The notes below the pieces were generated by a model. It saw only the letters and a list, made by a program, of their open reading frames with translations, made no database searches and was not told the origin of the DNA. Below, piece by piece: positions 8,161-28,443 of a DNA stretch of 64,000 nucleotides; the first letter of the stretch is position 1, and every line of letters starts with the position of its first letter. This DNA comes from Hyaloraphidium curvatum SAG 235-1 (taxonomy: Eukaryota; Fungi; Monoblepharomycota): assembly GCA_025558095.1 (NCBI GenBank), contig JAIVFI010000008.1, positions 310,001 through 374,000 on the forward strand. The letters are read 5' to 3'. A program made the position numbers and the translations under genes.

Positions 8161-10822
8161 GCGGACAGGGGCGGCTCCCCGGTGCGCGCCGCCGGCTGCA
8201 GCGACGCCCGGCGGAACGGCTCGGCGGACCCCATGCGGAGGAGGCGGAGCGGAGGAGGCGGAGGGAGGGGGAATCAGATCTGTAACGCCCGCGGATACGA
8301 AAGCTCTACCCAGATCCCAATTCAACTGTTCATGTAGTCCTCGATTACACTATTCTCTTTCCGTATCTTCACGCCTCGTCCTTAAAATCGACCTAGAGGA
8401 CCGCGTCGCGCGATATACATGGCTTCTGCCGTCGGTCTGCGTCCCCATCCTTTGGTCTATATGAATAGCCCGCCAGACAGGGCGTCGATCTGCTCCTGCT
8501 CGTGGAACTGTGCTTTTCCGTCCCTATGTCGGCCTCCTGGCCTGATCTTGATGTGATCGGGTCTTTGACGATTCCGAGGCACTCTGATGGCAGACGTCGG
8601 TTGCTCCCAAACAACCCGCTGAAGCACAAACCACCCTCACGGGACAGCGACTCTTTGCTCGTCTGCAGCGCCAAGAAACTCAAGGCGCACTTTCCGAGCC
8701 CCTGCTGGACGACCTTTCGGCTATCGATCTCTTGTCACGCTCGCTCACAACTTTGCCTACCGCCTCCCCTCCCCGACCATTGTTTGTTCACCAACTCTGC
8801 TCGCGGGAACCCTGCTCTTCGACTTTCTTCGGCTAGGTGAGTTTTGATCGACGTCGGCAAGGGACGGAAAGTGCGCCAAGGGTATCGAGGCGCTCATACG
8901 GGTTCATGGTTACCCCGGAACTGGTCACCGTGAGTGGTGACCCGCTAAGGACTTCCCGTAGAAGTCCTAGGGAGTGATTGCCGGTAGAAAGCGTCGAGGA
9001 GCTCGGCGTATGATCACTCTACGACCACAAGGTAGTCCCATCGCGCTTGCCCCTCGCCAAACCGCCCGCAAACAGCCAAACCTCCGAACCCCTCACACGC
9101 GCTGCAGAGCACGGCGCGCCACGCTGTGCATCGGTTTTCATTCAGCTGGTGCATTTCTCGGCGCCTCCGCGGGTGATGGCGCCGGGATTCGGTCGCGAGG
9201 CGGTGCCGGAGACCGTTGGGCCCTCCCGCGGTCAGGTGCGATCGTCGGCGGCCGCAGGCCTTGCCGGCGGTGCTTGACCAAGCGACGCGGCTGCGCACAC
9301 CGCGGCGGCATCGCGCAGGCTCGTGGTGCCCGTCGATTGGTTTCTGGCGCGACGGTGGTCGACCCCGGGCAGATGCCAAGTCGGGCGCTGGCCGTCGGCG
9401 CGGCTCTCCCGTCGTTTTTTGCTCGGAGATTTCTTTTTTAGAGCCGCTCAGGAAGAATGTCGGCGTGGATTTGTCTTGGGCGCCTTCTTCCTGTGCCGCC
9501 GGATGGGGTGTGCGCCCAATGCCATTTGTCGCTGCCTGCGGAGCTTTGAGCGCCGCCGGTTCGACCCCCTGCCTGTGCGGCCTCGTCGCCGCCGGCGGGG
9601 GCTGGATGGCCGCGCTTGCGTTGCTGTTCTTGGCTGCGACGAGGTACCCTGTCGAGGGGACTCCGAGCCACCCTCTCTGGCGGCGGCGAGACGCTGGGGC
9701 CCGTGTTGCACTGCTTCTGCGGGACGTTTCTTTCCTTTTGGTACAAGTCGGCGTCTCCCGGGCACGATTCTGACGCGGCGCTGCGGAGCGCGGCTCCCGC
9801 GACGGCACGCCGAGGACCTCGATCGCATCCGGCAGAGCGCCCTCTACTCCCCTTCCGGTTGGCGTATATCTGCAGCAGAGTGCCCGTGAACCGCAAATGT
9901 GAGTGTCCGCGCCGCGATGCTCTCCGTGGCGTCGGCTGACTCGCTCGTCGTCGCTAGGAACCGCATCCGCCCCTTTCGCGATTCCTCTGCGTTGCGGCCC
10001 GCTGCTCATTCCTGGACCCATTTGGATACCCGGACCGTCGTCAAACCCGCGCCACCGCTGATCGGGCACACTGCCATTTCTTCCGTCCGTGCGCGAACGG
10101 GCAAACCCCGGCTAGGGGCAGCTCAGCGGCCGCGACGGCGGTGTCATCCGGTCCCCGTCTACTCGCTTCCTCTCTCGCTATTGCTCGCCATTGTAGCGAT
10201 GGAGTAGTTGGCTGGCTTGCTTCTCGGACACGGTAGCTGGACGGGTGACGTGGCGGGCGTCGCTCTCGCGCATGTGGCGGATCTTCTTCGTTTCGAATTC
10301 TAGGACGTTTTCTTTGTTTTGAGGGAGGATCTTTTGCCTCGGAAGCGGCTTGCATGTAGCTCGGACGCGCCTGTGGCGACCTGATGCTCGTGGGACCAGG
10401 ACGCCTCTTGCAAACAAGGTCAACAAAGGACTCCCCCCGTGTCGTCTTTCACGCACCAGACCTCCGGCGCCAGCAGTCGCGTAAGTTTCCGAGCTTTTTT
10501 GTCTTGATCTGCGACTGGCGCGGCCGGGCAGCGCCGCGGAGGGGGGGGGTTTGGCCTGGGGCGACCTCCATCTCGGGCACTTCATGCCCGGCCATCCGCG
10601 CCTGCCGCCGGCGGAGACCCGGTCTGGCCCGGTTCTGCGACCTTTGGGTCGCAAGCTGCGGTTTGCGGGGGCTCCCTCGGCCGCGGCGGTCCGTGCAGCC
10701 GGCGCTCGGGCCCGGCCGGCAGAACCTTTCGCCGGACTTTGCTCACGGCCGTTCCCGCGCCAGATCTCTGCGACCTCGTGCTCTTCACCGTGTTCTGATC
10801 TCATCTTTTCCGGATTCTGACC

Positions 10823-13800
10823 ATGGCCGGGGCCGCCGAGGCCGCAGTCGACCTGCCCGACCCGGGTGCTGTTCCGCCCGAGGACATCAGCGCGGCGCTT
10901 CAGGGGGCGCCGACGTCCGTCATCTTGGGCTTTTTCGACGAGATGTACGACAAGACGTCCGAGGCCGCGGCGCTGCGGCTCGAGATCTGCGAGCTCGTCG
11001 ACCCCGAAGACGGCACGTCGCCCCGCAGGGCCGTTCCCCGGGGGAAGGCAAGCAAGATGGACATCCATGCGCGCAAGACGGCTGAGGAGGAAGTGACCGC
11101 CAAGCGAGCGTCGGCCCTCCGCGACGGCGGCAAGTGCGACTACGAGGGCCTGTTCCAGACTTACTGCCGGGTCCGCGCCGCGGTTCTGGACAAGCGGGTG
11201 GCTCAGTACATTGCCCGAGAACGGAGAACCGAACGCAGGGTGCAGATTGAACTCGCGAGGCAGCTCAAGGCCGAGGCCCGGGACGCGAGGAGATCCACCA
11301 GGGTCGAGGATGTCGCCGCGGGCAAGGTGGAGCACCCTGAGCATCACCCGCGCCGCGTTAGCTACGATGCTTCGACCGCGGCTGTGGGTCTGTGCATGGC
11401 CCTAGGCGTGTTGCTCGGCTTTGCGGCGTTCTTGGATATCACGATGCAGTCAGTTGCCGGCATCGCCAAGGGAGTGGCCAAGGGAGCCTTCGAAGGGGTC
11501 GCCGCCGCTGCCAAGGGTCTTTGGACGGCTCTCGTTACCCGGCGAGTCGCCGCCGCTTTCCTGGCCGTCGTCGCGCTTCTGGTCGCCGTCTTTCTCGTCG
11601 GACACGGGAGCCCCGACTGCCGCTCGAGCGACTTCCCCGCCTTACCTGCGCGAATCTCTGGGTCGTTGCCGAACTCGACAAGATCTGTGCACCGCCTCGG
11701 AGCTCACGTCGCCCGGCCGTCCTCACCATCCGCATCGTTGCATGGGGACGCCAGCGGGGTGCGACTCGTTCGCCGCGTCGCTCCGACCCCTGCCAGCGGC
11801 CCGGGACCCGCGCACCCGGCGCAGCCTGTCGAAGTGCAAGGGGCCGGCGCCAAAGATGTCGCGCCGTCTGCGGCGCCGTCATCACGGTCTCGCCCGGCCC
11901 AACGCCTCGGGTCTCCTCGCGCGGCGCGCGCCGCCGAGAAGTTGCTGGGGCGTCACACCGCAGCCGGTGGGTTTTGATCGCTCCGGATCGCATGGAGCTC
12001 GCAGCATTGACGCTCCCCACTCGTCCGCTGGCGCAGACGTCGTTGCCATGTGCGATGCCGAGCTCGCCAGGCGCGCGCAGGCCGAGCTTGCCCGCACCCA
12101 GCTCCGCCACGCTGTCATTGCCTTCCAGCTCAGGGACCGCATGTGCGACCGTCCTGGCAAGCTCGACTACCTGACCGGTGAGCTGCCATGTGGGCCCTTC
12201 GGTGCCATCTCTGACATGCCGCCTCTCTTTGTTCAGATTCCGAATGGGGAACGTTCGTCGGCGCCGCGCTCACCTGGCGCCTCAAGATGTCGGGCCCCTG
12301 GCGTCCGGCCTCCGCGGCGCCCTCCGCCGCCGTCGCCGATGCTACCGCACACGACCACCAGTGTGGTGTGATGGAGACGCCTCCGGCCTCGTGGACACCC
12401 CCCGTCAGGCCGGCCTCGGGCGCCGCGCTCATCCCGGCTCCGTCGTTGACCATCCACCCTCCCTCCGAGCCGGACGCCTCCGCCGCCGAACCCGCACCGC
12501 GCGCTGCCGATGCCGGGCTTGCCGCAGGGCCCGGGCCACTGGCTGCCGACGCTGTTGCGGCCAAGGTCGTCGCCGGAGCTGTCGACAATGCGCCCGCGCC
12601 CTGGACCCCAGCCTCTCGACCAGCTCCCCGACCTCCCTCCCCCACCCCCGCCGTTTCTGCGGTCGTGGCGGCAGGCCCAGAGCGCCGCGACGGAGACGAC
12701 GACCCCCCGACGCCCCTCACCCGGCCGTCGTCGTCTGCTTGGCGAGAGGGCGGAAGCCCCGCAGTCGCGTCGGAGGCGGCGCCGCCCAGCGGACCTCCTC
12801 TTCATGACGCGGGCGCGCGCTCTCTGCCTGTTGCGGGTGGCGCCGACGACGAGCCCGCTCCCCGGGTCCCTTGGAATGGACCGCTCTCGCGGTTCACCTT
12901 GGCCGGCCCGTGGACCGCCGCCGAGGCGGGCGAGGTCGACGAGCCGGAGGTGCTCTTCATTCTGCACCTCCCGTCCGACGTTGTGGCTGGGCACAACGCC
13001 TCGCGCGGGGTTGAGATCTCGATGCGCGCCTCGGATACGGTGTCTGATCTCCAGGTTCGTCGCGATCCATTCCTGTCGAGGCGCAAGCAGTTGACGCCCT
13101 TCCTACGCCCATTCCCGATCGCCACAGGTCCTCGTCGCAGACCGCATCGGCTGCCGTGTCTCTGCCGTCGACCTCTTTTCCGACCACCATCGGCGCAGGC
13201 GACTTTGCCCCGCAGCGTCGCTGGGCCAGTGCGGGATCCAGGCCGGCAGCTCCGTCTTTGCCCGCCGGCTTCGCAAGTTCACCCTATTCGTCTCCTCCTT
13301 CCCCATCACCCTCAGCGACGGCCTGCACTCGCTGAACAAGACCCTGACGGTCCGCGTGGGCTCCGACTTGCGGATCTCGGCGCTCAAGGTGGGCCAAATT
13401 CTCACCATGGCACCCGGCTGTCTTGCTGACCTCCCAATCCGCGCGCAGAAATCCGTCGCAGCCCGCCTCGGCGTCCCCAAGACGTCCTTCTACCTACGCA
13501 CACGGAGCGGCCTCGTCCTGGAGAAGGGCGGGCAGGTCGGGGACGAGCAGGTCGGGGACCTGCTCTGGAACGAGGCCACTCTCTTGGCCACCGTCCGCCT
13601 ACCCGGCGGGGCCAAGAACGCGACTTCGAGCGGAGGAAGGCGGGGGAGGGGAGGCAGGGGCGGTGGTCGGGGTGGGAGGGGCGGCCAGGTGCCCAAGACG
13701 CCCAAGCGGGTTCGGTCGGAGGACGAGGACGAGGGCGACGACAAGGAGAGCGACCCGGATCCGGAGGTGACGACTGGCGGCAGGGGGGTGGGCACGGAAC

Positions 13801-16800
13801 GGACCTCGCGCAGGGCGGGGTTGCGGAACGCCAATGCTGGTGCCGCGCCCGGCCCCTCGGTCTCGCCCGCGCACTCCACCCCGGCCGCGGCTCCGTCTCC
13901 CTCCGAGCCCGCTTCCGGCGCAGCGGCACCCACAGCTGCAGCACCACCTCCCTCGGCCCCCGCCGCCGGCAAGCCCCCCCCGCGCGGCCCTCGCGTCGAG
14001 CTGCCGGCCATGGACACCCACGAGGGCACGACGGCGCGGGCAGGCGGCAAGGGCGGCAAGAAGAAGGCCGGCGGCGGCCTCACCGGCACGCTGACGGAAG
14101 GCGAGGTGCAGACCATCGGCGGCAAGCACAGCGGCGGCAAGACCGCGACCAACAAGGAGATCTGGCCCGTGGCGATGAAGCTGCACGGCGGCGCATCGTA
14201 CCGCCTGCAGATCGACGACCACCTCGCCCGGCGGCGCATTCCCTTCAACCGGATCTGTTTCTACGTCGACGCGTCAGTGATCCTGCATTCCATCCTCGGC
14301 TCGGATTACGAGGCCAAGGCGCGGCAGGCCCTGGCGCCGCTCCTCTTTGGGCGTGCGGACTCAATGACCCTGCCGCCGGCTGACGAAACCCTCCCCTGGG
14401 TGGAGGACAGCCTGGGGGAGCTCGCGCGCGCGTTCGTGGACAAGCTTAAGCGGCTGCTCAGGGCGACGCCGGCATCGCGCGCCCGCGGCGACACCGTTGT
14501 GGTCTACTTCGAGACCGGGGCGCCAAAGCCGTCCGCGCAGGGAACACAGGCCCGCGCGGGCAAGCACCCGATCGCGTTGCCCGGGGCAGCGGACGCGGAG
14601 CCGTGGCAGCTGGTGCCGGAGGTGTTCGACGGCCAGCAGCAGCAGCAGCAGCAGCAGCAAGGAGGCGCGTTCTACGCCCTGCGGAAGCAGGTGCACGAGG
14701 CCGAGAAGCGCGGGACGGCCAACTCGGAGAGCTTCAACGGCGCCCTCAAGGGCTTCCTCAAGGTCGCGGGCAAGCCGGGCGCCGACGGCGTGCGCAAGGC
14801 CTTCGACCGGCCGGATGATCGTACAGGTGCCAATCGTGGGTCTCGCCGTGGACCACCCCCCGAAAACGGCTCCCGCTCACCGCCTCCATCTCATTCCATC
14901 CAGGTCTAGCAACGGCTCGCGCCGGCCACGTTGCAAGCTCCGCTCGCCTCGGGCCGGGCCTCATGCTCGTCCTCTCGCGCCTCGTCCGCGACCGCCTCCA
15001 GGCTGCACACGCCATGTTCGGCGCGACGGATGTTCAGCTCGTGGTGGCCGAGGCCGACGGCCATTTTGTCCGCGACGCGGAGCTGCGGTTGGATGCCCAC
15101 GGCCAGCAGGAGCTGCGGCTGGTCGTCACGAGCGACCGCGACCCCTTGTACATGGCCGTCCGCGAGGGCGCCATACACGGGATCGCCGATCTGTTCACCG
15201 ACGTCAAGGGGGCGACGCCGAGCCTGTTCCTGAAGCAGGATATCCTGGCGCACCTGGACGTGACCGCGGAGGAGCTCAAGGCATCGGTGCTCGTGGCGGG
15301 AAGCCACAACACGACGAGCCACTTCATCGTGGGTGTCGTTGATTCGGAGCTTTTGCGATCAGGCTGAAGGGAACGGCGGCTCACTGTCCCTCCCCGCAGG
15401 GCGCCAAGCGGTTCCGGGACGTGCTGCGGGCGAACAAGGCGATCATTGACGCCGCGTGGCTCCAGGCGCGGGAAGCTGTTCCGGGGTCCAGCTGGATCCG
15501 CACGTGCCTGGACATGGTCGTGCAGAACAACCTCGTCACCCCCAAACCCCGCGATCTCATCGCGGCCGACAAGGAAGAGCTGGTCCGCATCTACCACGAG
15601 ACCGAGGGCAAGCGGGCGGACGGGACGCCGCAGCGCCGTCTCCGGCTTCCGCTCGACGTCGCGCCGTCGGCGCAGGCCATGTTTCCTCTCCTCGTGCCCC
15701 TGGCCGAGGTCTTTGCCATGGAACCACTCGCAGCGGACCACCGGAAGGCCTTGGAGGCCCGGCGGAACGAGCTACGGAACGATCTCCGGAAGTTTGACGA
15801 GCGCTACGAGCCAGGGGAGAAGCTCATAAAGGCGGACGCCAAGACGCGCGAGAACATGCAGAAGGAGCTCATCGACGTGCTCGAGAGGCTCGGGGAGCAG
15901 CCCGTTCCGGGCAGCATCGCCGGGACCCCGTCTCCGAGGCCCCGACGGCGACATCAGTACGTGAGCCTCAAGGTGGGGAGCGAACGGCGGCGCTTGATGA
16001 CCTCGAGCTCACGCACAACCGTCGCCAGGCCGCGCTCGCGCAGCCTTTGCCGGCCGATGCCGCGCCCGGTCCTTCCTCCCCGGCACCGGTGGACCCGCAG
16101 CAGCCGGCCGACCCTTCGGCCGGCGCATCGGCATCGGCCAGCGCGGGCCCGACTTCGGGATCGTCGTCGGGACCGGCGTCCAGTCAGGCCATGACTCCGG
16201 AGCGAGACGCCGCGGTCAAGGTCGCCATTAAGATGGGCGAGGGCATCCAGGCCGCGTTCGAGCGGCGGGCCAAGAACGAGGAAGAAAGGCGCGAGGTCGT
16301 CGGCAAGCATGCCTGGAACGCGGCCAAGGAGGAGCCCGACGGGGACGGCTACATCTTCCTTGTCGGCGGCACCGCGATCCGTTCGACCGCCACGCCGGGC
16401 GCCGCTAGGGACGCGGTGCGCGCGGCAGTCGCGGCGGAAGCCGCCTCCGGGTCTGCTGGCGGGAACTTGGGCGGAAATGCGGCGGCTGCTGCGGACGCAG
16501 GGGCCCCCAGAGGCACCGCAGCGGGAGCTGCCGCGCCGGTGCCCATGGAGGTCGACCCTCCCGCGACATCACCCTCCCCTGAACCGCCTCGGGACGCCGC
16601 GATGGAGGACGCCTTCGCCGCCGGCGCCGGAACTGCAGTGGGTGACGTGCCGATGGACGAGTCGGCGGCGGGTCCGGATCCGGACGACGACGACGACGAA
16701 GCCCCGGAGGACGACGAGACCAGGCGGAGGACGAGGCAGGCCAAGGGCAAGGGGAGGGCCGAACCGATGAACGACCCGCTGCCCACGACTGCGGATCCCC

Positions 16801-19800
16801 GGACCGCGACCACGGAGGCGTTAGGTGCAGGGGAACCCGAGGGCGATCGAGAGGGAGCACCGGAGCAGGGTCGTGGGGCCGAACGGCCGCGCCTGTTGGT
16901 CAGGCTGCGCAAAGTGGACGCCGAAGGCTTGCGCTGGGAGCACGTTCGCGGCGATCACGCGCCGGCGTCGGGCAACTTGCGGGGCGCAGGTCGCCAGGAT
17001 TCGGCTCCCGCGCCCGCGCCCAAGAAGCAGAAGCGCGGCCGCGGGAAGGCCGACGAGGGCTTCAAGCTGGATCCGAAGGACGCCAAGGCGGACGAGGCGG
17101 AGGAGGAGGAGGCCCAAGGCGCGCGCAAGGGCGGTGGTGCTGTCACGATCCCCGGCCCCGTCCTCGACCACCTGGTGCAGCCCTGGTCCGGGCCCGTGAA
17201 GGACTTCATCTGGGCGCAGGTGCGGCAGGGTAAGGGCAGGCCGTCGGACGCGGACATCGAGGACTTTATGCGGAAGCAGCTCGGTCTGATCGGCACGGAG
17301 AAGCAGGCCGAGGTCGAGCTCGCGGAGAGGCGCAAGTTCGGCGACTTCATGGCGCTGGCGTTCCGCACGCAGCAGAGGCTGCTCATGGCCGGGAACGCCG
17401 CTTTTCGGATCGTCTTGGACACGTATCTGCACTTGGACGAGGAGCAGCGGGCTGCGTGGTTCCCGGGAGTGCCTCCTTCTCTCAACTGCTCCGATCCGGA
17501 AGCCCTAATTGATAATACGTACGCGGCGGTCGCCACCGCGCTGAGGCTCGAGGGCGGCGGAGATCCAGCTCGATTGGGTTCGGGGATCCCCGAGATCCGC
17601 GCCTTCCTTAGGGAGCTGGGCAAGGAGCTGACGTGGATCGGCCTGCAACCGGACGAGGACCCAGTGCGGATCCGCAGCGGCTTTGAGGAGTGGCTGAAGC
17701 AGAAGAAGGCGGCAGCGAAGGTTGCCTACGCGAAGGACTTGGCGAAGAGCGGCAAGCCACCGCGCGCGCGCAACCCCCATCTGGAGCGGGCGGCGGAGAT
17801 GGAGGTCGGAACTCTGTGCCGCATTTTCCCGGACCTCGCGCGCGAGTACCTGGACCAGCCCATTTCGCCGGACCGGGAGGACGGAAGGAAGCGGCTGTTC
17901 CTGCAACGCAACATCCTCCGGCTGGCGCCGCTCAAATCCTGGAGTCCGCGCGGAGCGGATGGCCAGGACCGTGCGGACGAGATCCTCGGGCTGCCTGCCG
18001 AGCTGGCATTTGCGACGGACGAGGATGCGGGACCCGACCGCACCGAGATCCCGGCGCCGCAGCCCGTGGACCCCGACCTTCGGCACGAGTATCGGCAGGC
18101 GATGCGGGAAACCAGCATCGCAATGGGCAGCGATCGCCTCCTCATCGCGATGCAAGAGGCCGCCGGCAGGCAGCTGCGCGGCCTTGCCTTTGTTGATTTC
18201 GTGGAAACCAGGTTCCGCGTGCTCGCCCGAGAGCCTGGGCTGGCCTTCCACCGCGGCGGCGCCCTGGACGATCCCACCCGCCGCTTCGTGTACGGGGACC
18301 TGTCGGCGCCGGACTTTGACCCCTCGCTTCCCGTCACGCTGCTCTTTGGGAACTGCCCCAAGCTCGACGTGCTCCTCGGTTCCCGCCGCCACTTCCTCAA
18401 CCCGACCAACAAGCTCCTGTTCAACGTTCTCAACGTCGTCGCCCTGCACCGGCTGCAGAACGCCCTCGAGCGTGCCAAGGTGGGCTCCCCGTCGCTCGGA
18501 AGCACGCACACCCTCACCCGTGCTGACACATCGACGCAGCGCGGCGATCCCGGTCGGTACCCCGCCGAGGTCCTGGAGAAGGACATCAAGGCCATCAAGG
18601 CTGACATCAACATGATCAAGGAGACCGAACCCCTCAAGGACCCCGACGATGCTCACTGGGAAGCGGCGACCGCCGCGCGCTGCCGCGTTCTGGGCAACAT
18701 TGTGTTCGCGGACGTCAACAGGATGTGCCCGATGCTGTTTGTGGGTGGCGACAATTGCCGTAGCATTCCAAGCGCTCGACTGACGCCTTCGCGCAGAACG
18801 ACGGCGACGAGTGCTGCTGCTGCGATCTCCCCCTAATGCTCCGCGTCGGTCGGGACAAGGCCCCCGAGCTCACCAAGGACGAGGCTCGCCGCGCGATGGC
18901 GCTCCACCGCCGAATGCAGCTCGAGTTCCTGCGACACGAGCTCCGAGCCTTCCACCCTGCGTTGGTCGTGGGCCTCGGCGTCAACATGCGCAAGGTGCTC
19001 GACGCCGCCTCTGGCGACCGCGACGTCCCGACCACCCCGCTCCCCTTCTCCACGGGCGGCGTCGCCAGCCTGCGGCTGCAGCCCGTCACCAACGACGACC
19101 TCCTTCCCCCGACGGACTTCGAGGTCGCCATGGCCCCGCACCCGATATCGGGGGTCAAGCTCCCGTCGCACCTCGCGGATTCCATCACCGCCATCAACCT
19201 CATCCCGGACCCCTCCCTCGTGCCGGGCGACGCCGCCGTCGTCGGTCCTTCCTGGCGCGCCGTGGCAAACATCGACGAGGGTGCGCGCCTGGCGATCGAG
19301 CGCCTGCTCCCGAGGGTCTACCGCAACTTCCCGGACACGGACGCCTCCGGGACCCCTCTCATGGTCTCGCTCGCCGCCGCATCGCTGGCGATCTCGGACT
19401 CGTTCATCGAGCACGACACCATGCACCACTCCTACAAGCTTTTCCCCGGGGTTTTCGCGCAGATCCATTCCTCCCGTCTCGTCTCCACCCTCACGCGCCT
19501 CGCCCGCGACGGTCTCCGCCGCCTGGTATACAACAAGGCGCACGCCTACCTCTCCAAGGCGTTCGCGCCCGGGGTCCCGCGCGGGCTCATCAACGCCCTG
19601 GCGTACCGCCTCCGCTGCGTCCTCGTTCCGCCGAAGCGCGGCGGCGCGCGCGCGATCGCGGCCGAGGAAGAGGGAGACGAGGAAGCAGAGGAGATTGTGT
19701 TCGCCGGGGTGCGCCAGGCCGCGGGCGACGACGACGCGGACACTGCCGGGGCCGTGACCGACGAGACGCCCGCCGAGACCGTGCTTGACATCTACGCCCG

Positions 19801-22399
19801 CGCCACCATCCTGGTCGGCGAGGTGGAGGGCGACGTTGCCGGTCTTCGAGAGCGCTTCACCGCGGACCTGTCGGCAGAGAAGCGCGGGCCGATCGAGGCC
19901 GCCTTCGACCTGTTCCTGAACCTGCTCACGGTTGCGGACGGAGGTGTCCGCTCGGCCAAGCACAAGGACGACGTGCGCACCGAGGTCGGCTTGGGCACGA
20001 CCGAGCTTTCCAAGCTGACTCTGGTGGAGCAGCTGGTGATGGTCCGCCGCGGGGTCGTGGCGGGCGAGCTGCGCCAGAACGTTGTGCCACGGCTCCATGC
20101 CGGAGACCGCTTCCAGCCCGTGGACAACACGGCGTTCGGGCGCTGGATCTCTGCCTACATTGGACATTTGCATCGGCTGAAGGAGGGCGGCACCGACAAG
20201 GACGGGAGGCCCGTTCCCTTTGCCCTTGCCGACGTCGTTCGGGGCTGGGATGTGCCGCGCATCAAGGCCGTCCAGGATGCCCTCGACAAGCAGAACCAGG
20301 CCACAAAGATTGACACCGGCACTGCGCCCGGCCTCCCCGCGCTCATGAACAAGATGATCCCCGGCCTGGCCCGCGTCGTACGCGGTCCGGCGATGGACCG
20401 GGGGGACGCGCACGTGGACAGGTTCGAACCCTACAAGTCTAGCCACTTCCAGTCCAACGGCATAGAAACGCGGATACTCGTGACCAACCAGCGCCATCCG
20501 CACCGCTACAACCAACTCGGCGGCGTGCGGACCAAGACTGCGGTGGGTCATTTGGCGCAGCGGCAGCTGACTGCGAGCAGATGCTGACCACCGCTCGATC
20601 GTGGCAGGCGGGGGACCCGATCCTCGGCGACAACCCGCGGTGGCCCGTCGACTGCAGGGGCTGCAAGAAGGGCAAGTGCGATCGGCTGTACCCCGGCTGC
20701 TCGTAGGTGTCCCGCACGATCACCGACGCCGATATACCTGATCCCGAGTTGCTGACGCCCGCGATCAGCGACTGTGCCGCGGCCAACCGCGCGTGCGTGT
20801 ACGATCTGCCGACCTGCAAGCCCTGCGAGGCGGCAGAGCGGGATTGCGACGGATGCATGCCGACCTGCGGGTGCGTCTCCAGCTTTGACGTGCATGCCGG
20901 CGCCAGAGTCTCACACCATCCGGTGCCGCGCAGCCACTGCTCCGCGAGCTCGACGTCGTGCACGTGGTCCGTCGCGCAGCCAGAGCGATACGCGCAGGTG
21001 ACCAGCAACGCGTTCCGCCGCACCCTGCCCGAACTTGCCGGGCATCGGCACATCAAGGCCGCGACCACGGCAACGGTGCCGGCGGCGGACAACGAGGCCG
21101 CGAGCGCGACCGCCGGCATCCCTCCTGCTCCTCCACCCACTCCTCCCTCTCCTCCCGCCCCGCCCGGGCCGCCGGCCTGCGGCTCGACCCCGATCTCCAG
21201 CCGCTGCTCCTCGTCGTGCTGCCATGTTCGCGCCGGAGCCGCCGGCACGCATGACCACGCGCGAATCGTGGTACTGGAAGGACAGCTGTGCTGTCGCCCT
21301 CCATCGGGCCCCGGCGGCCGCCGGTGTCAGAAGCTGCAGACGGACGGCAAGGACGTGCCGTACTTCTTCAGGCACTCGACGACCGTCGAGGCTGCGGACA
21401 GCCTCGCCCTCGAGTCGATCCTGGTCGCGGTCGACCCCGGCACCGGCGGCCACACGATCAGCGTCACCGTTCACTTCCGCGGCGAGGGCGGCCAGCTGGA
21501 GCAGCTGACGGTGCACCGCAAGTTCGAGCCTCTCTCGTCCGCCGGATACCGTGCACGCGACGAGGAGGCGAGGTCGGCGGCCTGGTGGGAGGCCCATGGG
21601 GCGATGTCGCAGGGGTTGCGCGGGATCTCGAGGTCGCCGTACCCCATGGACGGCGTCATGGCCGGTGCGCGAGCTGTCGTCCGCGTTTCCGAGCGCCGCA
21701 GTGCTGACCTCTTTCCCGTGCCCAGGTGCCGCCTTCCTCCGCAATGCCGGCCCCCTCCTCGACCACGCGCAGAGCCGCAAAGCCCAGCTGGCCAAGGCCT
21801 ACCGGTTCCGCGCCTTCCAGGCCCGCAGCAACGCCATCGTCAACTGGATCACGGAGGCCTGCGAGGCCCTGTGGCGGCGCAAGACGTATGTCGAGACCTA
21901 CAACGCCGCCGTCCGGCAGGCCCAGGGCGCGCACGGTGGCCGCAAGCCGACCGCGGAGGAGCTCAGGATCACGGAGCGCGCGGCGCGCGAGGCCGCGGAG
22001 CAGGCCGTCGACCGCATCGCCGCCGTGCCCAACCCCATTGTTCTCTGCGGCGCTGGCCAGGGCTCGTCGTCGAAGATGCCGTACCGCGGCGGCATCGCCG
22101 AGCTGCTCTCGCGCCACTTCCTCGTGGTGATGCTCGGCGAGCACAACACGTCGCAGCGGTGTCCCACGTGCCTCTCGGAACTCAAGGCGTACCCGCTGCG
22201 CAAGGGCGACGTCGAGCACAAGGTCTGCCCGTCCTGTGCCGGCCGCTCGGACAAGCACGGCTTCAAGGACAAGCTCGAAGTCAACAAGAATCGGTCGGCG
22301 ACGTTGTGCCTCATTCGAGTGTTCCTGCACATCATTGCCACCGGCCAGCGGCCTGCCGCCTTCACCCACCCCGCTGCTTTGCGCGGAACTGCCGGATAA
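10823..22399 (+). CDS. giant multidomain Fanzor1-like protein (about 3,575 aa): TM region - 2x ubiquitin-like - FEN1/XPG-like nuclease - UDG-like - 2x Zn2Cys6 - RuvC/zinc finger
   Basis: Thirteen GT-AG introns join consecutive ORFs in frame: 11967-12036, 12178-12236, 13055-13127, 13389-13448, 14827-14903, 15329-15399, 15961-16028, 18480-18539, 18741-18796, 20543-20607, 20703-20768, 20871-20933, 21665-21725. The spliced length is 10,728 nt. RuvC-I VAVDPG (21433), RuvC-II GEHNTSQRCPTC (22139), KVCPSC zinc finger, and the C-terminal RPAAF typical of Fanzor1. Confidence 0.82.
14635..14660 (+). repeat. (CAG)n microsatellite encoding poly-Gln within the giant Fanzor gene
   Basis: Run of CAG codons giving QQQQQQQQQ. 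Confidence 0.85.
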
Positions 22400-22530
22400 A
22401 CCGACCCGGCGCGAACCTGAATGGGTGAGTGTAGGATTTCTCTCGGGCAGGGCTTTCTCGGGCCCTGAGCATTCACGGAGGAGTTGACCAACCTCTCTCC
22501 CCTTTTCAAAAGTCTGCGGATAGTGGCGGG
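22400..22530 (+). ncRNA. candidate Fanzor omegaRNA (scaffold plus flank-derived guide)
   Basis: Directly follows the Fanzor stop; nested stems GTGAGTGT(22425-32)/GCATTCAC(22469-76) and CAGGGCTT(22448-55)/GGGCCCTG(22460-67). Position matches known Fanzor/TnpB omegaRNAs; boundaries inferred. Confidence 0.5.
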
Positions 22531-23256
22531 GACTCGGATGTTGTGACCGCTGTATCTCGACATCATGCCTTTCTGGCGAGGGATGTCTTTTGCCTGGATT
22601 CCTGCCCGACGGTCTTGCGCAACTTTGTTCCTGTCGAACGCTTTGCTCGTCGACGCCGATCCACCAATGCGGGCTGCAAAGTTGTCGGCCATGTTTCCAA
22701 TTTCAGGCCCGTCAAAAATCCGCTGATGGTCGCCGAGGTTTTCCAGATTCTCCGCCTGCAGTCGACCTCCGTCACGCTGAAGCTCATCGGAGATGGCCCG
22801 TTGAAGGGCGAACTGACTATGCGTCTGCAGGAACGCTGTTTGTCGGATGGCGTGCTCAGTGTCGACAGTGTGTCGGGAAGCGTGCACAGTGTCGGCTTCA
22901 CCCCGGACGTGGCGGCGGCTCTTCATGAGTGCGACGTCCTCTTTGTTTCCAGCCAAATGGAGGCATTCAGTCTAGCTGCATTGGAAGCCATGGCAGCCGG
23001 AGTGGCGGTAGTAGCTCCCAGGGTCGGCGGCATTCCGGAGCTCTTGACCGACAACGAAACGGGAGTTCTTTACGAGCCTGGGGACGTCGCGGGAGCCGCG
23101 GCAGCCTTGAAGGCGGTCCTGGGTGACGACGCCTTCCGAAGAAGGCTCACGGAGCGGGCATTTGAGGTGGCAAAAGGGTACGACGTGAATGCTGGCGTCG
23201 CTGCCTACGAGCGGCTCTATCTCCGCCTGCTCAGCAGAGGTCGAACAACGATTTGA
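22531..23256 (+). pseudogene. bshA: C-terminal portion of BshA (GT4 glycosyltransferase)
   Basis: SDVVTAVS, NFV, the BshA signature GHVSNFRPVKN, LIGDGP, and SQMEAFSLAALEAMAAGVAVVAPRVGGIPE. No start codon or N-terminal domain; the HVHYAIPH region was not found. Confidence 0.88.
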
Positions 23257-23467
23257 CACCGGGTACACGCGCAGCTATGTATCTTTCGCCAAAGTCAAAT
23301 CCCACCGAGATGTGGGTCATCGTCCGTCCTCTCCGTCCGATGCGTCGGATCGTGGAACTGCGTCTCGGAGACGAAGCCGCCCGCGATGGTTCGCGCCTTT
23401 CCATCAGGCGTTGCAGAACACACAGTCCGGCTCGAGTTCACGCAGCCGGTCATTGCACCACAGCCAG
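23231..23467 (-). pseudogene. bshB1: decayed, internally deleted second copy of the bshB1 3' half
   Basis: Clear nucleotide similarity to 27475-27950 (e.g. TCAGCAGAGGTCGA...GATTTGACACCGGGTA, GAGATGTGGGTC, GTCCGTCCTCTCCGTCCG, GGCGTTGCAGA, CAGTCCGGCT) with two large deletions and small indels. Confidence 0.88.
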
Positions 23468-27410: not shown

Positions 27411-27474
27411 GTTGGCTTGCTGTATAGATCGTCGCGCTGCTTTACCTCCACTAGATTATGTTGGCGCATCCTGC

Positions 27475-28206
27475 TCAGCAGAGGTCGAGCAATGATTTGA
27501 CACCGGGTATACGCGCAGCTATATACCCCTCTCCAAAATCAAAGCCCGCCTGATGGCCAAACTCACGGGCGCGAGCTTCGACGAACCTGATGAACGCGGG
27601 GGTCGAGATGTGGGTCTGCGGTCCGTCCTCTCCGTCCGGTGCGTCGGGATCATGGAACTGCGTGCGGTAGGCGCGAATGGCATCCAACTTCCGGTCCCAG
27701 AACTCGCTGATGTCCACGACAAACGTCGGTATGAGCAGCCGGTCCTGGATGTAGCTGTAAACGTTCTTTGGTCGCCATGGGGCCTGTGCTTCGCCATCGG
27801 GGCCCAATGTCGCCACCTTGACCAATCCGCTGAGAAAAACGGACTCGGAGACGAGCTGCGCCGCCCGCGAGTGGTCCGGATGCCTTTCCACCGGGGCGTT
27901 GCAGAGGATGCAGTCCGGCTGGAACTCCCGCAAAGCTTGCACAGCCGCCAGCTGCGATGCCTCGTCGTTCCGGAAGAAGCCGTCGCGCAGACCCAAGTTC
28001 CGCCGCACGCTGAGCCCCAGGATTCGGGACGCGTCCTCCGCTTCCCGGGCTCGCGTCTCGGCTGTGCCCCGCGTGCCCAGCTCGCCGCGCGTGAGGTCGA
28101 CGACGCCGACCCTCCGACCCCGCGCAATCTCGCTCAGGATCGTCCCTCCGCAATTGAGCTCCGCATCATCGGGATGCGCTGCAATGACGAGCAGGTCCAG
28201 CTTCAT
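27475..28206 (-). CDS. bshB1: bacillithiol biosynthesis deacetylase BshB1 (PIG-L/LmbE family)
   Basis: Intronless, 243 aa; MKLDLLVIAAHPDDAEL, VDLTRGELGTRG, RHPDH, LSGL, YIQD, QF, THISTP, EG. Resembles Bacteroidetes BshB1. Confidence 0.93.
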   Translation of the reverse strand: MKLDLLVIAAHPDDAELNCGGTILSEIARGRRVGVVDLTRGELGTRGTAETRAREAEDASRILGLSVRRNLGLRDGFFRNDEASQLAAVQALREFQPDCILCNAPVERHPDHSRAAQLVSESVFLSGLVKVATLGPDGEAQAPWRPKNVYSYIQDRLLIPTFVVDISEFWDRKLDAIRAYRTQFHDPDAPDGEDGPQTHISTPAFIRFVEARAREFGHQAGFDFGEGYIAARIPGVKSLLDLC

Positions 28207-28443
28207 TTGTCTCGTGATTGACAGGGGGACGTTGGTCCCCGTTCGCTAAGGCCTCTCCGGGAGTCACTCGTGGCGATTGCCCTGGGGAATCCCCAAAGGC
28301 AGCGCCAGCAGACATCAAGAGTGGAGCTCCTTGTGCCCGCTCGGGAAAATCCGAAGTCCGAAGACCCAAAACTTGATGACGATCACTCTGAAAAGCTACA
28401 CATGTCTATCTCCCGAGTCCCAGCTTCGCAATCAGCCCTTGTC

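Follow-up and report, generated by a model that had tools for sequence, protein, structure and literature searches.

A UDG-like domain and a Fanzor-like C-terminus sharing a spliced frame in a multi-copy element of Hyaloraphidium curvatum

We analyzed a 64,000-nucleotide stretch of DNA (the window; G000:C8:310001-374000), whose protein labels at NCBI name Hyaloraphidium curvatum, and our modelling indicates that it very probably encodes a domain with the fold of the superfamily of uracil-DNA-glycosylases (UDG). The domain stands in the same spliced frame as a Fanzor-like C-terminus, which bears out the original prediction that it lies within a Fanzor fusion, and it is under purifying selection. 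At a little under an even chance, it is an active glycosylase that would act on a mismatched or modified pyrimidine in Fanzor-bound DNA during copy-in of the element that carries it.

Spliced frame, element and copies

The element and its reading frame comprise the following features:

9067..22501, + strand: multi-copy element of 13.4 kb, with a 94.85% identical copy on contig C31 whose flanks differ
10823..22399, + strand: single spliced frame of 3,582 aa with 13 introns, supported by RNA contigs and by NCBI models of diverged copies
14112..15723, + strand: FEN1/XPG-like region (YVD, E-A-D, SDRD, GSHN..FIGA), conserved in 4 copies
18132..19321, + strand: modelled UDG-like domain, aa 2285-2642 over three exons
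20650..20945, + strand: Cys-rich cluster, Zn2Cys6-like (only the C14 copy gave Pfam Zn_clus, at E 0.49)
21247..22399, + strand: Fanzor-like RuvC/zinc-finger C-terminus with DPG (Asp 21433), E-x6-CxxC, C4 finger and NKNRS
22380..22501, + strand: conserved 3' end of the element, candidate guide-RNA scaffold, with a splice donor at 22425
G000:C5:738836-743640; C17:483899-486506; C15:287489-287949: 5'-truncated copies of the element

Exact joints in the RNA contigs were found for 11 of the 13 introns; one further joint (20543-20607) is approximate and one intron (18741-18796) is supported indirectly. None of the RNA contigs covers the entire gene, and the run X1 was counted as RNA solely since its contigs skip GT..AG introns, none of the sequencing runs listed as containing the sequence being registered as RNA. 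The indirectly supported intron has no joint listed in the RNA contigs; there the depth drops from 156 to 5 in the bin, an RNA contig begins exactly at 18797, and an intron matching in position is present in all 5 copies. The NCBI model P0001 has identical letters to the spliced frame over the 360 residues compared. The NCBI models of diverged copies are single proteins (P0004 with 2,449 aa and P0005 with 2,987 aa), in which the nuclease-like region is followed by the UDG-like domain and then by the Fanzor-like end. The models P0001 and P0002 end at a retained intron (20703-20768) that the RNA contigs splice across; its retention brings in an in-frame stop, so that a product without the Fanzor part could be made.

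Seven related loci were found, of which four are long (the window, C31, C14 and a second C8 locus, the last two with left ends that are not fixed) and three are 5'-truncated, and the UDG-like domain is present in 5 of the 7. The truncated copies retain their introns and have intact, fixed 3' ends with pyrimidine/C-rich tails, and no target duplication was seen at them. Neither a terminal inverted repeat nor a target duplication was seen at the element junctions inspected, and no transposase, recombinase or polymerase was recognised in the element. The 5' truncation, together with the kept introns and the fixed 3' ends, suggests a DNA-based copy-in from the 3' end. The C5 copy carries a frameshift in the middle exon of the UDG-like domain and a duplicated stretch of the Fanzor region (G000:C5:742608-743517 and near 739680).

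The 3' end of the element is conserved and structured across copies. An intron (22425-22512; RNA contig depth 933) is spliced there. Its donor is in the conserved 3' end and is kept in other copies, the end of the element holds its branch point and its pyrimidine tract, and its acceptor is 11 nt into the flank; this splicing may free or remove the candidate guide-RNA scaffold. An isolated 45-nt piece (L191, G000:C1:1157782-1157826) is 96% identical to the middle of the scaffold. Directly 3' of the element there is a group 1 glycosyltransferase frame (22435-23256, Pfam E 5e-28), into which the spliced 3' UTR of the element extends. A short repeat pair (23226-23363 and 27470-27663, 86-90%) lies outside the element, at the end of a frame (27475-28245, - strand) that we take to be deacetylase-like.

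Anatomy and fold of the UDG-like domain

Within the domain these features were located:

18339-18416, + strand: LLFGNCP...HFLNPTNKLL, in ORF 15798-18836
18348..18410, + strand: motif 1, G/A/C-N-C-P-K, with Val at the specificity position, the stacking Phe and N-x-T-N
18477..18695, + strand: helical hairpin insertion of 53 residues, containing a 60-nt intron and absent in the bacterial rows
18480..18539, + strand: intron of 60 nt, in frame, with a GT..AG joint in RNA contigs
18699..18731, + strand: motif 3, IVFADVNRMCP
18699-18716, + strand: IVFADV, in ORF 15798-18836
18741..18796, + strand: intron of 56 nt, frame-changing (depth drop, contig start, NCBI model)
18812..18823, + strand: Cys cluster with invariant CCC, in the extended loop after motif 3 (quoted as CCCC, ORF 18764-20587)
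18938..18979, + strand: ELRAFHPALVVGLG, helix-strand, Gly invariant in 48/48 rows, in ORF 18764-20587
19133..19144, + strand: motif 2, APHP, with a His (19139-19141) invariant in 5/5 copies
ending at 19144, + strand: AMAPHP, in ORF 18764-20587

The window does contain, on its + strand and in the order claimed, all the UDG-type peptides quoted in the original prediction, and this is not due to chance, the same blocks being kept in 5/5 genomic copies that are 45-92% identical. The span first proposed (18330..19150) contains the motifs; the modelled unit is wider (18132-19321). Similarly, the CCCC insert exists as a Cys cluster of which only CCC is invariant, one copy reading CCCDDCC. The 53-residue helical insertion (18477-18695) had not been mentioned there.

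Motif 1 aligns with GEAPG, GLAPG, GSMP and GQAPG, with its Pro invariant in 48/48 rows, and the stacking Phe is found in 4/5 copies, with Leu in one. Motif 3 has an invariant Asp (18711-18713) at the position of the uracil-reading Asn and an invariant Cys at that of the KCRP Cys. Across the five copies 89/289 domain residues are invariant, in the blocks YGDLS, NCPK, N.TN, GN.VF.D, CP, CCC, QLE.LR, GLG.N, TGG, APHP and PSHL. The domain has a dN/dS (window vs C31) of 0.27 and its second core half one of 0.18, as compared to 0.57-0.68 for the linkers; motif 1 has too few changes for such a judgement. The domain is conserved as much as the nuclease-like region (28-36 invariant residues per 100 aa, three lineages).

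Direct sequence searches with the domain were blank. Pfam gave no match, PF03167 not being reached above the cut-off, PDB sequence searches gave none either, and hmmsearch with UDG profiles against whole proteins gave nothing significant. A profile search of 1.84 billion protein representatives returned 3 matches, all from the own organism, and word-index protein searches returned only that organism's proteins. No outside relative was found in viral contigs, nor in metagenome contigs, where the one match lies in a bacterial two-component locus and was put down to chance. The collections searched are poor in intron-rich fungal genes, so these blanks do not show absence. In HH comparisons the domain reached 0.2% against the host MUG and at best E 0.009 (probability <=4.5%) against UDG family profiles, the reversed controls giving E of at least 0.11 and block shuffles scoring similarly. 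The ordered-motif score was equalled by 1/100 block shuffles for family 4, 1/100 for the GQAPG group and 3/100 for MUG, and was not significant for 5/8 profiles (6, 12, 15, 70 and 97 of 100 shuffles, the 70 belonging to the family 1 UNG profile). The domain ranks first of 39 protein windows for 4/8 profiles and tied first for a fifth, by small margins. In the ESM Atlas, the query P0001 1060-1340, which has no added UDG rows, gave 19/30 matches to PF03167 with a score of 0.92; 4-10% of shuffled proteins score as high, and the counts of shared features, at 163-171, are borderline. The unspliced exon pair gave no usable Atlas match.

Prediction by AlphaFold from element rows alone failed (pLDDT 41.5), and a fold search with the failed model was uninformative. 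Out of 94 trial settings an alignment (A6; 3 element copies and 45 bacterial UDGs, 48 rows) was chosen for its placing of all seven motif blocks; 7 MUG rows were omitted because with them (alignment A5) motif 2 slid downstream to a later LxPxP stretch. The model from A6 reached pLDDT 75.6 and pTM 0.80 (five models, 69-76) and has the alpha/beta UDG fold with motifs 1, 3 and 2 in order, a result that is partly circular because of the bacterial UDG rows in the alignment. Of the 358 residues, 184 have no bacterial cover; many of the latter likewise climbed to 80-93, and residues 1-30 and the hairpin at 83-93 are examples of parts that became confident; this gain may be partly due to the full-length element rows. 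The Cys-cluster loop is poorly modelled (pLDDT <50 at residues 182-189 and 192-197), as would be expected of a metal loop modelled without its metal.

In a Foldseek search with this model, all 47 matches listed are UDG, UdgX or TDG proteins, with a best E of 0.0016 and no PDB match at E<=0.001. Structural matches with Z>=8 comprise 8 chains, namely seven UDG-superfamily enzymes and a UDG-fused phage polymerase: UdgX (10.8), UDGb (10.8), UDGa (10.1), the UDG-fused phiLo polymerase (9.0), SMUG2, SMUG1 (9.1-9.3), TDG and MUG. The best of them (Z 10.8) has an rmsd of 3.7 over 184 aligned residues, and the best unrelated row has Z 7.5. At the head of the viral matches to the model stand proteins that are unnamed or of polymerase size, together with UDG-like entries. 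An unrelated fold, which would have told against the original prediction, was not obtained.

Another explanation is that this is some other alpha/beta domain that was threaded into the UDG fold by the added alignment rows. The blank searches, the failed unbiased model and the weak statistics speak for it, yet the Atlas features indicate UDG without any added rows, the seven motif blocks are colinear, and regions without UDG rows are also confident; we regard this option as quite improbable. The UDG-like fold proposed originally is supported, with the qualification that the sole confident model had bacterial UDG rows in its alignment.

Pocket and possible activity

Compared with the pocket of Tth UDGa (residues from PMC5387724), E41-G42 corresponds to Asn-Cys, E47 to Val, F54 to Phe (Leu in one copy), N80 to Asp and H155 to His. 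No water-positioning residue was recognised: the UNG-Asp/MUG-Asn site has Cys, and Asn, Ile or Arg stands where family 4 has N89. The wedge Leu after motif 2 is absent, H+4 being Gly or Cys.

For the favoured reading, that of an active glycosylase, a possible course of events can be proposed, in which we infer every chemical step; what was observed is the anatomy, the expression as spliced RNA, the selection and the truncation pattern. The base would be flipped into a pocket that, according to the model, retains the leaving-group His and the stacking Phe. The Asp in place of the uracil-reading Asn and the Val at the specificity position may shift the enzyme away from plain A:U uracil and towards a base derived from cytosine (U:G, T:G or 5mC). 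Host repair would then incise the abasic site, and the upstream FEN1/XPG-like domain could trim the resulting nick or flap as copy-in of the element proceeds from the fixed 3' end. The additional cysteines are likely ligands of a metal that keeps the motif-3 loop in place.

Catalysis is favoured by the invariance of His, Asp and N-C-P-K in 5/5 copies, by the purifying dN/dS and by family 4, where, as a passage in PMC5387724 has it, the motif-2 His carries most of the catalysis without a motif-1 Asp/Asn. A cytosine-type substrate is favoured by the several C5-methyltransferase loci of the host and by human UNG, in which Asn->Asp at the uracil-reading position conferred cytosine activity and strongly lowers uracil excision (in an excerpt of PMC4333384). 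In the same excerpt MUG-K68D did not gain cytosine activity, and Asp occurs as well in the MUG of the host and in family 6, so that the motif-3 Asp is a lead only. The favoured reading is weakened by the lack of a recognised water-positioning residue, by Phe->Leu in one copy, by the lack of CpG depletion in the element (o/e 1.13) and by an excess of CpG transitions that is no more than modest.

In the host genome ten C5-methyltransferase matches were found at about six loci, which from their motifs are presumably DNMT1/DIM-2-, DNMT5- and DNMT2-like. Two related atypical C5-methyltransferase-like genes with a TTPPCQ motif (L194 and L197, G000:C12) lie 25 kb apart. No TET/JBP gene was found in the host, so that a role on oxidised 5mC is unsupported. 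Between copies, C->T changes per site are 0.039-0.071 at CpG vs 0.019-0.048 at CA/CC, with CT equally high, and neither RIP-like nor strong CpG decay was seen.

One possible alternative is that the domain has the UDG fold and is non-catalytic, serving as a base-flipping or lesion-sensing clamp that holds or tracks DNA during copying; a processivity role has been proposed for poxvirus D4. Such a clamp would fit with motifs 1 and 3, in neither of which a residue that positions water was recognised, with the missing wedge Leu, with the Phe->Leu change and with the large inserted helices, which suit a scaffold. It is harder to reconcile with a His, an Asp and an N-C-P-K that are invariant across copies only ~45% identical, and family 4/5 enzymes are active despite a non-polar motif 1. 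Moreover, the fused UDG domain of the phage polymerase is active and acts ahead of synthesis, as stated in part of PMC13697223. We consider the clamp doubtful, though it deserves to be kept in mind.

The phage precedent would also suit an active uracil glycosylase whose only task is to rid single-stranded DNA, exposed in copying, of deaminated cytosine, as would the GC content of the element (66-70%). However, in UNG the exchange of the uracil-reading Asn for Asp strongly reduces the excision of uracil (same excerpt of PMC4333384), no polymerase was found in the element, and the host has MUG-type and UNG-type genes of its own, which would make plain repair by the element redundant. This option appears very improbable.

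A further option is a suicide enzyme like UdgX, in which the motif-1 Cys or the CCC loop would bond the abasic sugar after excision; such a bond is improbable, and equally improbable is that the resulting protein-DNA link marks or primes the insertion site. An invariant Cys does lie where the Asp/Asn of UNG/MUG direct attack on C1', and CCC stands in the extended motif-3 loop where UdgX, a joint top structural match, has H109. Yet this loop is of low confidence in the model, and at least five conserved Cys are more simply explained as a metal site.

Partner domains and comparison with known systems

FEN1/XPG nucleases have seven acidic metal ligands and an H3TH motif. In the FEN1/XPG-like region, which has a dN/dS of 0.09, the D, E-A-D and D-x-D elements are present; the FDG site is Glu and the GxDY site is His. 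Its comparison with the host XPG-I profile covers 81 columns with a pairwise E of 0.023 and an HH probability of 2%. These sequence features weakly support a FEN1/XPG identity for 14112-15723.

In the Fanzor-like C-terminus the D-E-N triad is accompanied by DPG, E-x6-CxxC, the C4 finger and NKNRS in all copies. The Fanzor pattern, as given in portions of PMC3627910 and PMC10711439, is D-x(125,275)-TS-xx-C4 finger-x(5,50)-RD with a Glu six before the finger; here we find DPG, a spacing of 217, E-x6-C and the C4 finger, with KN for RD in all copies. Profile matches are weak (PF07282 E 0.0077, below the cut-off), and no solved Fanzor matched the C-terminus by sequence. That the Asn marks a dead site was considered and rejected, since a D-E-N triad is active in GtFz1 according to a part of PMC11423790. 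The Fanzor-like part is predicted to be RNA-guided.

Between the UDG-like domain and the Cys cluster lies a conserved helical region (19321-20540), which may be the Fanzor REC/WED part. Further upstream there are two tandem repeats (12800-13620, aa 660-845) that end in RLPGG, RLRGG or RLLGG in three lineages and have no Pfam match; we take them to be ubiquitin-like in look, and they could be a cleavage site that processes a polyprotein. A second, remoter Fanzor-like family (L032-L035, on G000 C11, C2, C30 and C13) is ~43% identical over the C-terminal 135 aa and has a KNVS third site and an extra intron.

Taken together, the Fanzor-like part, a UDG-fold glycosylase of a new type and the flap nuclease might form a natural RNA-guided machine for base excision or demethylation, a reading that we hold to be rather unlikely. 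It would remove 5-methylcytosine or another pyrimidine at a programmed site, and the repair intermediate could serve the copy-in of the 13-kb transposase-free element or an escape from host methylation.

In the literature searched no paper on Fanzor with Hyaloraphidium was found, and among the matches listed for Fanzor with glycosylase the titles are of editing reviews and engineering, with no natural fusion. The words 'glycosylase' and 'XPG' are absent from the main texts of PMC3627910, PMC10711439 and PMC10530073, and 'XPG' and 'fused' from that of PMC10432273; the supplements of these papers may list the element. The UDG-Fanzor architecture was not found in the literature searched, and it is seen in one species so far.

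Judged by its sequence, the domain would fit no UDG family compared, as it has the defining motif 1 of none. UDGa (family 4) and UDGb (family 5) from Thermus, Thermotoga and Sulfolobus are like the predicted fold (Z 10.1-10.8) and share with the element domain the xCP after motif 3, E-l-x-x-x-x-P-x-x-x-v-x-L-G, the F-x-x-G hairpin and the HP of motif 2. Their motif 1 is GEAPG or GLAPG, whereas the element domain has xNCPK, Asp for Asn80 and a lost N89 site, has no N-terminal CxxC of the 4Fe-4S site, and carries the inserted 53-aa hairpin and Cys loop. Thus of the family 4 signature the motif-2 His (5/5 copies) and the stacking Phe (4/5) are present, and GE(A/G)PG with Glu47, Asn80 and Asn89 is not; the GLAP(A/G) and motif-3 loop Asn of family 5 and the GQDPY and HPSPLS of family 1 UNG are likewise absent. 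With MUG/TDG (family 2) and family 6 HDG the domain shares H/Y-F-x-x-P-x-N after motif 1, and the motif-3 Asp is as in family 6 and the host MUG. The GINP of MUG/TDG is lacking, Cys replacing its catalytic Asn, and motif 2 differs in having His. Family 6 HDG has GS(L/M/F)P as motif 1 and STSP as motif 2, neither of which was found. The motif 1 of family 3 SMUG1 is GMNPG, from which that of the element differs by inspection (the alignment had no SMUG rows). UdgX of Mycobacterium smegmatis, a joint best structural match, also has an extended loop after motif 3; this loop is KRRIH in UdgX and CCC here, and the motif-1 Glu of UdgX corresponds to Asn. The cross-linking His, which lies in that loop of UdgX (from a section of PMC10776899), is thus not found.

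The phiLo and YerA41 UDG-fused A-family polymerases (described in part of PMC13697223) similarly have a UDG domain within a DNA-processing protein of very large size that belongs to a mobile genome; there the partner is a polymerase, whereas here the partners are Fanzor-like and FEN1/XPG-like domains in a eukaryotic element. With the Fanzor1 GtFz1 (as excerpted from PMC11423790) the C-terminus has in common DPG, E-x6-CxxC, the C4 finger and Asn as the third catalytic residue, and in both systems the gene has introns and lies at the 3' end of its element. Known Fanzors are stand-alone proteins of ~600 aa, whereas the Fanzor-like part here closes a 3,582-aa frame. The natural fusion, if true, offers a testable route for the spread of a large eukaryotic element without a recognised transposase. 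The Asn-Cys motif 1 would represent a chemistry absent from the UDG families compared, and the domain is a possible source of a glycosylase with new specificity, its Asp change being the one linked to cytosine activity in human UNG. In glycosylase base editors a guided nuclease has been joined to a UNG variant by engineering; if the natural fusion is true, evolution has reached the base-editor design as well.
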